A DNA stretch of 34,762 nt from Mycoplasmatota bacterium. Lineage in GTDB: Bacteria > Bacillota_I > Bacilli_A > RF39 > UBA660. The stretch lies in NCBI GenBank assembly GCA_012727915.1, contig JAAYGD010000001.1:1-34762 (forward strand). Reading direction: 5' to 3'. Below, one piece after another: positions 20,401 through 23,400 of the stretch. Position numbers: made by a program. Position 1 is the stretch's first letter. Each line of letters starts with the position of its first letter.

Positions 20401-23400
20401 ATATTTAGGTTTATGAATTCCAGGAGTATCAACGAAAATTATTTTAGTATCTTTATCTTCATAAACACCTTCAATATTATTTCTAGTAGTTTGTGGTTTA
20501 TTTGATATAATTGAAACCTTTTTATTTAATAAACTATTTATTAAAGTTGATTTTCCAACATTAGGTCTTCCAATTATACTTACTATTCCATATTTCATAG
20601 ATTCTCCTCACTAAATGAATAAGGAGTAAGTTGATCTAATGTATATATATTTTCTAATCCATTTAAAGAATATATATATATTTTTGTTTCCTTATTTAAA
20701 TAATCAACTAAAGCTCGTCTACATACAAAACAAGGAGTAACTGGTTTATCTGCCATAATATGTAGCTCAAAAAAATCTTCTTTGTTATATCCATTTGATA
20801 TTGCGGAGTATAAAGCATTTCTTTCAGCACATATACCAGCATTTGGAGATGAAGTTTCTACATTGACACCCTTAAACTTATTACCATCTTTTGTTAACAA
20901 AATCGCAGATACTCTAAAATTATAATATTTGCTTTTGGAATTATCTAATAATTTTTTTAAATCTTCTATCATTTTTTACCTCTTAAATATTAATTCTAGT
21001 ATTTGAGGAAAGAACACATATATCCCTACTATAGTTGCAAGTAATACTGAAGTTAATACTGCTGCTGAAGCACAATCTTTTGCTACCTTAGCTAAAGGAT
21101 GATACTCTTCAGTAACTAAGTCAACAGTTGCTTCAATCGCAGTATTCAATAACTCTGCAACTATAATTACTGTCATTACTAAAAACAATAATATCCATTG
21201 TGTTCCTGTAATTTCAAAAACAATTCCACAAAAAATTGCAAATATACTAAAAAATATATGTAATAACAAACTTTGTTCATGAGTATATGCATATTTATAT
21301 CCATAATATGAATTGACCCAACTTGCAATAAATCGTTTAAATCCATATTTTTTTGGACTAACTTCTTTTTTACCTTTTAATTTTTTCTTTTTATCTTTTG
21401 ATACCGTACTCATTTAAAATGTCCTCCTGTAATTTAAACATTACTATTTCTTCTTCTTTAATCATATGATCATAACCTAATAAATGCAATAATCCATGAA
21501 TTGATAAAAATGATATCTCTCTCTTAAGTGAATGATTATATTCAATGGCTTGTTCTTTTGACTTCTCATATGATATATAAATATCTCCTAATAATCTTTT
21601 TCCTTCGAACATAGACTTATCTATATCTTCTAATGCAAAACTTATTACATCTGTTTCTTTATCTATATTTCTATATTCTTTATTTATTTCTTTTATCTTA
21701 TTGTTATCTATAAATATTACATTAAATTCAACATTATCTATATTTAATTTTTTTAATGCATATTCCAATAAATCTTTTAAGTCAAAATCTATTCTGTATT
21801 TAATCTCATAAAATATATTAATATTATTCATTAATCCCCCAATATTATCTTATACCAATTTGTTACATATAACACAAATAACAGAAATATAATAACTAAT
21901 ACTAAATTTATAAACCATTCTTTCTGTAAACTATTTGGAAGTTTTTCTTTTATCTTATAGAACAACATATAAGTAAAATATCCTATTGAACCTCCTATTA
22001 CATTTAATATTATATCATCTATATCGAATACTCTACCAATATTTAATTGAATTAATTCAATTACTGTAGATATAAAAAACGAAAGGAATATTGCGGCATA
22101 TATTTTAGATGTTCTTGTATAATAAGTAATAAACCAACCAAGAGGAGCAAATAGTAAAATATTTCCAACTACATTTCTAAAAAACAATTCAGAATCAATT
22201 TTATATCTAAGCATCTCTTTAAATGGTATATAATTAGAAAAACCATAATTATTATCTTGAAAAGTAACTATATAGAATAAAAATAAAACATATATTACAA
22301 ATACTAAACTAACTAATTCTCTATATAAAACAAATTTATCTTCCTTATTATATATAAAATACATTATTCTAATAGACGCTAAAACAACTACAAATATTGC
22401 AGTCATTGGCCATATTTTATTAAGTGTATCTAGTAGAGCATCTTTAATCATAAACTCTCCTACAAAATATATTATATCACATAAAAAAGAGCAAATTAAT
22501 TCAATTTACTCTTTAATATTTCACTTGCTAATTTTGTATCTGCTTTACCTTTTATTTTAGGCATCAATACTTTCATAACATTCCCAAAATCTTTTGAAGA
22601 TATAGCGTTAACTTCTTTAATTGAATCATCTATAATTTTTTCTAATTCTTCATTAGAAATTTGTTCTGGCAAATAACTTAATAATACTTCTATTTCTTTA
22701 TTTAATGTATCTATTGTATCTAATCTATTTGCTTTTTTAAATTCTTCAATACTTTCTTTTCTTAATTTTATTTGTTTACTTATAATATCAATTATTTGAT
22801 TATCATCTAAAGGTTTCATTATTTTCTTTTCTTCAATTTGAACTGCACCCTTTAATAATCTCAAAGTAGCTAATTTTATTTCTTCTTTAGATTTCATTGC
22901 CAAAATTAAATCTTGTTTAATTTTTTCGTTCATTAATAATCTCTTCTTCCTTCAGAAGTTTTGCTCTTCTTTTTACTATTTTTAATTGCGTTTTTCTTGG
23001 CTTCTCTTTTTTCTACACCTGGTTTGGTATAGTGTTCTCTTTTCTTATATTCTGAAAAAACACCGCTTTTGGCAGAGTCATTTTTAAATCTTTTGAAAGC
23101 ACCTTCAAAATTGCCATTTTTTACTATTACCTTTGTCATATACATCCCCTCCTTTGCGGTTATAAATTCAAAAAAATTATATCAAACTTTCTTTGATTTT
23201 TCAACATCAAAAAAAGAGAGATTAATTATCTTCTTTCTTTTTTTCCTTGCTTAATACTAATTTACCTTTATAAAATCCACATTCAGTACATACTCTATGT
23301 GGTTTAATTACTGCTCCACAATTAGTACATTTAGTTGTTTGTGATTCTTCTATTTTGTAATGTGTACGACGCATTCTCTTTCTAGTTTTACTAACTCTTC

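Follow-up and report, generated by a model that had tools for sequence, protein, structure and literature searches.

Peptidoglycan genes without a recognised carrier-lipid synthase in a Mycoplasmatota bacterium and its relatives: the dgkA locus and a probable outside source of the polyprenyl-phosphate carrier

Organization of the dgkA locus

The window, a stretch of 34,762 nucleotides from contig JAAYGD010000001.1 of a Mycoplasmatota bacterium (GCA_012727915.1; its genome is called G000 here), carries a conserved gene cluster in the order vanZ-ybeY-dgkA-cdd-era-recO-glyS (Table 1). In gene order, the ybeY-dgkA-cdd-era-recO part corresponds to the Bacillus and Staphylococcus locus. The window DgkA has an intact reading frame and scores 110.6 bits against PF01219 (cut-off 22.3), which places it in the DgkA/UdpK family, and it shares 32% identity with E. 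coli DgkA. Its PDB matches are diacylglycerol kinase entries only, with a best E of 1.4e-12; for the UdpK subtype, they contain no characterised UdpK reference and NCBIfam holds no model. A second dgkA copy lies on contig C67; the genome-wide survey's note likewise lists two DgkA-type genes for G000. VanZ is present in 107 of the 115 genomes having a ybeY-linked dgkA locus, and its family is predicted to free undecaprenol from lipid-linked head groups (PMC12419801).

Table 1. Features of the dgkA locus in the window.
Feature	Coordinates	Strand	Basis
dgkA, prokaryotic diacylglycerol/undecaprenol kinase family (145 aa), ybeY-linked housekeeping copy	20976..21413	-	PF01219 DAGK_prokar, E 3.9e-32
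ybeY endoribonuclease, conserved neighbour upstream of dgkA	21391..21831	-	PF02130; seen at 115 dgkA loci
VanZ-family membrane protein	21831..22451	-	PF04892
cdd cytidine deaminase, downstream of dgkA	20595..20972	-	PF00383
era GTPase, downstream of dgkA; served as tree marker	19735..20598	-	MMR_HSR1 + KH_2
recO and glycyl-tRNA synthetase (glyS), remainder of the conserved cluster	17620..19726	-	RecO; tRNA-synt_2b + HGTP_anticodon
Tract almost identical between G000 and genus mate G006, spanning dgkA	20905..21549	.	Nucleotide comparison

The dgkA genes of G000 and its genus mate G006 differ by 6 mismatches in 415 nt (98.6% identity), compared with 85-89% identity for four neighbours, and dS between the two genomes is 0.056 for dgkA versus 0.45-0.85 for the compared genes. 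The 644-bp tract spanning dgkA shows about 98% identity against a genome mean of 87%, and 3 of the 727 400-bp windows reach 97%, in an alignment of 312 kb drawn from 378 kb of the G006 genome (about 800 kb). The nucleotide comparison shows a recent exchange of the window allele between species, and this exchange says nothing on substrate. The other 10 such near-identical tracts shared by these two genomes include pilin-like, sulfatase-domain and ribosomal-protein genes.

Carrier-lipid synthesis and the wall pathway in G000

G000 comprises 872,930 bp in 76 contigs, with 93.8% completeness and 25% GC. The UppS profile PF01255 gave no match in this genome at E<=10, all 14 controls being positive, and a profile built from 12 family UppS proteins also returned 0 matches at E<=10. 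Neither a trans-prenyl synthase (polyprenyl_synt) nor GHMP kinases were found in G000 by search, nor was HMG-CoA reductase, which was searched in G000 alone. Homologues of E. coli dxr, ispA, ispB, ispD, ispE, ispF, ispG, ispH, idi and ubiA gave no match in G000, and dxs gave one weak match only (2e-5). The survey's claims that G000 has no UppS and no MEP or mevalonate pathway were borne out, the latter for the genes searched. Compared with a Rickettsia-type auxotroph, G000 shares the lack of both isoprenoid pathways but has not kept a UppS of its own.

The cdsA gene of G000 lies mid-contig behind a 324-aa orphan, P0001, which occupies the uppS slot, and the same pairing of orphan and cdsA recurs on another contig, C74. 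P0001 yielded no Pfam match, no usable Atlas feature match, no DGNxR motif and no PF01255 match; its Atlas model is of low confidence (pTM 0.22) and matches helical folds only, with TM under 0.5, and 6 relatives were found in 5.8 billion proteins (lengths 178-567 searched). Having neither Pfam, Atlas nor motif support and only 6 relatives, P0001 was rejected as a substitute carrier synthase. PyrH and Cmk had no match in G000, which carries a phage-type dNMP kinase (a P-loop kinase on contig C21), possibly a non-orthologous replacement in the same genome. This kinase bears a distant resemblance to the phosphomevalonate kinase of animals (E 5e-5, short of the cut-off), but the dNMP-kinase family scores far better, with the G006 orthologue used, and it was rejected as a phosphomevalonate kinase.

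G000 contains MurA, MurB, MurC, MurD, MurE, MurF, Ddl, MraY, MurG, one MurJ, FtsW, a class A PBP and a class B PBP. Three further carrier-loading transferases (two Glycos_transf_4 proteins and one WcaJ-like transferase) are present, as are the recycling candidates BacA, a VTT/DedA protein and DUF368. Judged from genes alone, the peptidoglycan set (Mur, MraY, MurG, MurJ, SEDS and PBP) is complete and under selection. The complete lipid II membrane pathway described by the survey was thus recovered, with MraY, MurG, FtsW and PBPs all found, although several details require correction. One MurJ was detected where two had been counted; murG is present, but its matches at two places appear to represent a single gene lying across contig boundaries (the end of C26 and the start of C40); and the claim that every known C55 recycling step is encoded fails, G000 having no PAP2-type phosphatase match.

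Between G000 and G006, both of which have no UppS, omega is 0.067 for mraY, 0.086 for murC and 0.054 for era; mraY and murC are under purifying selection, on par with housekeeping genes. The Asp/His motifs of MraY are intact in 6 UppS-less genomes, and no internal stop occurs among the 150 MraY matches listed of 183 in the family. MurI had no match in G000. Nor did GlmU, so that an own UDP-GlcNAc supply through this enzyme is not evident there. GlmU exceeds the cut-off in 1 of 151 family genomes, with 17 partial matches, and UDPGP, searched as a GlmU substitute, was positive in no control genome, which leaves that search without information. The absence of GlmU forms a second gap in the wall pathway and could point to enzymes unlike known ones.

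Distribution of UppS in the genus, family and phylum

UppS was found in 0 of 7 genomes of the genus, in agreement with the survey, and the pattern it had noted in 23 of 61 sampled relatives proved to be wider. In a family sample of 151 genomes, each at least 90% complete and drawn from 150 genera, UppS is present in 102 and absent in 49; 20 of the 49 negatives were directly listed and the others are genomes missing from the positive list, with the total agreeing at 49. MraY is present in 145 of these genomes and missing in 6, and 46 of the 49 UppS-less genomes keep it. The contrast between UppS absence and MraY absence has a Fisher p of 5e-11, calculated over kin that are not independent. Five UppS negatives from among the best assembled gave no match in any case (0/5 at E<=10).

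The uppS gene stands immediately before cdsA at 9 of 12 positive loci, with rpsP upstream in four. The one-contig UppS-less genome G150 has the order rpsP, an 81-aa ORF, 136 bp, cdsA and rseP with no uppS remnant, a clean uppS deletion in front of cdsA. Unrelated and mutually different genes lie upstream of cdsA in three other UppS negatives, also with no remnant, and the CdsA search of a further negative, G133, gave no match.

A tree of 115 genomes was built from VanZ, YbeY and Era, covering 35 of the 49 negatives and 80 of the 102 positives; the remaining genomes have no ybeY-linked locus, and the tree is unrooted. On this tree the UppS state needs 27 changes, at least 16 of which are forced by well-supported branches, and about 40 of 500 shuffles gave equally low counts. 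It supersedes a first tree of 72 genomes, which required 19 changes, at least 12 of them forced. UppS absences are scattered over the tree, and repeated loss is favoured because the uppS position is ancestral; a few negatives may be bin gaps.

In the phylum sample, UppS is present in 114 of 201 genomes. The five UppS-less genomes checked for MraY outside the family gave no match (5/5), and UppS loss there therefore accompanies wall loss. The phylum sample (n=201) includes many wall-less lineages and is rich in TGA-reading genomes; this richness, like the size and GC content of G000, accords with the RF39 label given in the survey's note.

Isoprenoid and glycerolipid dependence of the family

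Among the 151 family genomes, IspG was detected in 2, IspH in 8, a trans-prenyl synthase in 15, GHMP kinases in 18 (at most 2 per genome) and PlsY in none, with IspG and IspH occurring together in G072 only. Isoprenoid and glycerolipid dependence is thus family-wide, given IspG in 2/151 and PlsY in 0/151. Of ten GHMP kinase loci inspected by eye, 2 were IspE-like and the others sugar-kinase-like; with at most 2 matches per genome, mostly of the sugar-kinase type, a hidden mevalonate route was rejected. Full IspH is fused to a prenyl synthase in three genomes, and a partial IspH fusion occurs in two. All 12 UppS proteins examined from genomes keeping UppS have intact catalytic residues. The survey had cautioned that RF39 genomes retaining UppS would need an outside IPP source, and nearly all genomes with UppS do indeed have no recognisable IPP source of their own. 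Salvage looks like a process at several levels, with UppS loss as the last level.

On the glycerolipid side, G000 has CdsA and PgsA, and PlsX, PlsY, PlsC and DgkB gave no match. Some kinase must therefore supply phosphatidic acid in G000, and the window DgkA may be needed to make phosphatidic acid from diacylglycerol.

DgkA-type kinases, DUF368 and the loss of UppS

DgkA is absent from 7 of 49 UppS-less genomes versus 13 of 102 UppS-bearing genomes (p 0.80), and DUF368 from 7 of 49 versus 17 of 102 (p 0.81; for four genomes the absence was deduced from the list of positives). Neither presence is enriched, and both were discarded as markers of UppS loss; being no commoner without UppS, DgkA and DUF368 are therefore not a specific adaptation. 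DUF368 is nonetheless widespread in the family, occurring in 127 of 151 genomes versus 3 of 14 controls. Five UppS-less, MraY-bearing genomes have no DgkA match, and four of the five have BacA and four have DUF368. In G047, assembled in 9 contigs, MraY and DUF368 are present and UppS, DgkA and BacA had no match.

The DgkA tree contains 149 sequences from 130 of the 131 DgkA-positive genomes and is weakly resolved over 131 columns. It includes a second subfamily of 24 rows (SH-aLRT 85), comprising the C67 copy and four PAP2-DgkA fusions. This subfamily occurs in 14 of 49 UppS-less versus 10 of 102 UppS-bearing genomes (p 0.008), is missing from the other 35 UppS-less genomes, and occurs in addition to a ybeY-linked copy in 9 of 35 versus 2 of 80 (p 0.0003). 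Independent pairs on the tree gave 3.0 in the same direction as UppS loss, 0.1 in the opposite direction and 12.9 with no difference (median p 0.25), so that the association, with so few informative pairs, does not reach significance on them. The C67 DgkA shares 61-63% identity with proteins labelled Clostridia or Firmicutes bacterium and 33% with the window copy, which suggests that it was acquired; it is a better candidate for an undecaprenol kinase than the window copy.

These results bear on the central claim of the genome-wide survey's note, that the carrier is scavenged and activated by undecaprenol kinase. That the carrier comes from outside is well supported: uppS is repeatedly absent, no IPP pathway is present, the wall genes are under selection, and BacA, DedA and DUF368 are retained. 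The kinase route, however, is not established, given the lack of DgkA enrichment and the five genomes without DgkA.

Proposed explanation and alternatives

The explanation to which we give somewhat better than even chances is that G000 and many of its relatives would build peptidoglycan on a polyprenyl-phosphate carrier that they acquire already finished, chiefly out of other microbes' membranes, along with glycerolipids, whose synthesis they likewise cannot begin. In the proposed mechanism, foreign membrane lipid would enter the outer leaflet, glycerolipid and polyprenyl lipid arriving together. BacA would trim C55-PP, DUF368 or DedA would move C55-P inward, and a DgkA-type kinase, where present, would phosphorylate free undecaprenol, the kinase thus offering one entry route that is not required. 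Carrier recycling would keep demand small. The window DgkA would probably also, or mainly, convert scavenged diacylglycerol to phosphatidic acid for CdsA. The G000 mraY-murC stretch was found in 19 DNA runs of 7 studies from bioreactor, digester, landfill and wastewater settings (6 studies excluding that of the best holder), of which one run may be G000's own source; no RNA run was among those listed, which speaks neither for nor against expression. Given this digester- and wastewater-type DNA, microbes or feedstock are likely donors. Points against this explanation are the 102 genomes that keep UppS without an IPP pathway, where a different supply is needed; G047, with neither UppS, DgkA nor BacA matches; the GlmU gap and the possible dNMP-kinase replacement in G000; and the lack of enrichment of DgkA or DUF368 in genomes without UppS.

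A related reading makes the kinase the obligatory activator of undecaprenol, leaf polyprenols or phytol taken up from feedstock or diet, which is the survey's route with a widened source. With UdpK of S. mutans, phytol is phosphorylated about as fast as undecaprenol (PMC12796225), and the enrichment of the second DgkA subfamily, alone or as an extra copy, the exchanged window allele and the digester, bioreactor, landfill and wastewater settings of the mraY-murC stretch all suit this reading; we nevertheless regard it as rather unlikely, since most independent pairs show no difference, 35 of 49 UppS-less genomes are without the second subfamily, and five with MraY have no DgkA match. An own carrier, made by an unrecognised non-homologous synthase with a novel IPP route or replaced by a non-isoprenoid carrier, is in our view unlikely. 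A novel IPP route would explain why 102 genomes keep UppS (intact in all 12 proteins inspected) yet have no MEP or mevalonate genes, and both the missing GlmU and the phage-type dNMP kinase, with its distant, sub-threshold likeness to phosphomevalonate kinase in a genome without PyrH and Cmk, could be read in its favour. Against it, P0001 in the uppS slot has no supporting feature, four other negatives have no common gene in that slot, and each of the at least 16 state changes would need a replacement already in place, with two new chemistries required.

That the wall is vestigial or being lost, with tiny lipid II turnover or repurposed genes making the missing carrier harmless, appears improbable. 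Wang et al. read bactoprenol synthesis in such gut lineages as deteriorating (PMC7301438), the phylum sample has many wall-less lineages, and GlmU, and in G000 also MurI, had no match. Such decay is hard to reconcile with MraY in 145 of 151 genomes, with its freedom from internal stops among the matches listed, with housekeeping-level omega (0.07-0.09) for mraY and murC, and with the whole Mur-to-PBP set and the three further carrier-loading transferases kept by G000; moreover, a lipid II cycle, however small, cannot run without its carrier. An assembly or binning artefact, with uppS present but missed, is highly improbable and for the family already largely refuted. G000 is a 76-contig bin also without the expected pyrH and cmk, and about 4% of genomes miss MraY, so that false negatives may make up a few of the 49. 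However, G000 cdsA lies mid-contig and C74 repeats the arrangement, a joint miss in 7 genus genomes, taken as independent, has a probability of 2e-7, a miss rate of 10% gives p 4e-14 for 49 of 151, and the deletion in one-contig G150 is clean.

Beyond the preferred explanation of a ready-made carrier, a broader picture can be tentatively drawn, which we consider possible though clearly less likely than an even chance. The family, a large radiation, would consist of walled, contact-dependent thieves of lipid from other bacteria with graded isoprenoid salvage: genomes with an IspH-prenyl synthase fusion plus UppS would salvage HMBPP, those with UppS alone would import IPP and FPP, and those without UppS would take finished C55 out of the membranes of prey, with a second, acquired kinase assisting. 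Lineages would have arrived at this last tier many separate times, borrowing UDP-GlcNAc and glycerolipids as well.

Relation to known systems and biological significance

Mycobacteria have their own cis-prenyltransferases, and Corynebacterium was positive for UppS (PF01255) as a control. A survey of peptidoglycan-positive species reports UppS in nearly every one and names mycobacteria as the exception (PMC5814848). The literature searched, supplements and most subscription journals excepted, returned no report of a peptidoglycan-making bacterium without cis-prenyltransferase that borrows its carrier, and the accessible text of Lombard 2016 (PMC5088576) and Begmatov 2025 (PMC12306168) holds nothing on a borrowed carrier without UppS.

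Rickettsia (Ahyong et al. 2019, PMC6854040) makes peptidoglycan without a MEP or mevalonate pathway on outside isoprenoids, resembling about 100 genomes of the family in which UppS is kept without IPP synthesis. It takes IPP, DMAPP or FPP from the eukaryotic cytosol and builds C55 with its own prenyltransferase, whereas the 46 UppS-less, MraY-bearing genomes would need finished carrier, and digesters and wastewater are where G000 DNA turns up. Saccharibacteria, walled members of the CPR (10.1101/211649), are alike in having a near-complete peptidoglycan pathway, no fatty-acid synthesis or IPP pathway and inferred lipid scavenging; uppS and the carrier are not addressed in the available text of that paper. 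By analogy, the proposed mode would resemble the isoprenoid scavenging of Rickettsia and the lipid scavenging of CPR bacteria, but the lack of UppS breaks the Rickettsia pattern.

According to the RF39/RFN20 metabolic model of Wang et al. 2020 (PMC7301438), 86.9% of RF39 genomes carry mraY, ispA is missing, UDP-GlcNAc synthesis is missing in some representatives, and bactoprenol synthesis is deteriorating. The model records uppS and MEP genes in four representatives of 1.5-1.9 Mb, compared with IspG in 2 of 151 and UppS absent in 49 here, and in its accessible text proposes no scavenged carrier. The DgkA/UdpK proteins of B. subtilis and S. mutans (PMC5723303, PMC12796225) belong to the same Pfam family as the window kinase. 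Free undecaprenol is present in Gram-positive membranes and is phosphorylated by B. subtilis DgkA, which tops up a UppS-made pool and is dispensable for growth (PMC5723303); G000, in contrast, has no match to UppS, PlsX/Y/C or DgkB, making diacylglycerol a competing substrate. DUF368/PopT and DedA are candidate C55-P translocases that recycle the cell's own carrier (Sit et al., PMC9876793); both families occur in G000, and we infer that they might also serve the uptake of foreign C55-P.

UppS is regarded as essential wherever peptidoglycan is made. Its loss many times over with the wall kept implies that C55 lipid can move between cells in growth-supporting amounts. The purpose of free undecaprenol and its kinase becomes directly testable in laboratory strains. 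If the graded picture is true, the last tier would be walled cells with a wholly borrowed essential wall carrier. A borrowed carrier would give a concrete reason for the resistance of these bacteria to culture, and suggests polyprenol, polyprenyl phosphate, membrane vesicles or donor cells as medium additions.

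PAP2-DgkA fusions and wall-precursor genes

Fusions of a PAP2 phosphatase to DgkA, two families tied to undecaprenyl carrier recycling, occur at four loci (Table), and three of the four lie in UppS-less hosts. Full-length GlmU exceeded the cut-off in a single genome of the 151 in the family sample (each at least 90% complete), with the C-terminal acetyltransferase half alone matched in 16, a gap at the step expected to provide MurA and MurG with UDP-GlcNAc. PlsY was matched in none of the 151 genomes, and the genome under study, G000, yielded no match to PlsX, PlsC, Fab or ACP, while retaining CdsA and two PgsA-family genes.

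Many family genomes carry two MraY matches, and one MraY of the one-contig, UppS-less genome G150 (loci L221 and L222) is flanked by FtsI-like and FtsW-like genes. Outside the family, with TGA read as sense, UppS is kept in 29/48 genomes of family f4 of the phylum sample; among UppS-less f4 members, MraY was absent from both examined (n = 2).

Table. Locations of fusion genes, dNMP kinases and window features
Feature	Location	Genome
PAP2 phosphatase-DgkA fusion	L040:823-1839	G029
PAP2 phosphatase-DgkA fusion	L062:1480-2427	G068
PAP2 phosphatase-DgkA fusion	L102:1829-2821	G064
PAP2 phosphatase-DgkA fusion	L177:1176-2123	G142
IspH (LytB)-polyprenyl synthase fusion	L209:2550-4490	G147
IspH (LytB)-polyprenyl synthase fusion	L210:2561-4495	G008
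IspH (LytB)-polyprenyl synthase fusion	L211:1941-3809	G053
Phage-type dNMP kinase	C21:32623-33183 (-)	G000
Orthologue of this kinase	L252:389-934	G006
BspA leucine-rich-repeat protein with pilin-type N-methylation motif	window 27177-28214	G000
Prepilin peptidase	window 30900-31664	G000
T2SSF-domain gene	window 31677-33989	G000
Adjoining RnfC-like and RnfD-like genes	window 10062-12378	G000
L handles are loci from other genomes; C21 is a contig of G000, and G006 its genus mate.

Variable and exchanged loci

Set against C21:19816-21635, C74, a 1.5-kb contig of G000, duplicates cdsA at 96%, and its upstream orphan ORF is a 68%-identical version of the C21 counterpart; comparison of the two contigs indicates that the slot upstream of cdsA is variable in the population. 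The phage-type dNMP kinase gene of G000 lies partly inside a recently exchanged tract. With no match to PyrH or Cmk in G000, this kinase possibly replaces both. Besides the tract over dgkA, the window holds a second one near-identical to G006 (22851-23470), which spans two small ribosomal-protein-like ORFs and the spacer between them.

Within the window, no remaining Rnf subunit adjoins the RnfC-like and RnfD-like pair. The BspA/pilin-motif protein, prepilin peptidase and T2SSF-domain genes may constitute an attachment machinery.

Possible isoprenoid salvage

DUF368, also tied to carrier recycling, is absent from G042 and G072, the sole IspG-bearing genomes among the 151, a number too small to weigh (n = 2). 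Partial versions of the IspH-polyprenyl synthase fusion were seen at L212 and L213. The hosts of these fusions are all UppS-positive and lack IspG, and the occurrence of such fusions in IspG-less genomes suggests salvage of HMBPP.
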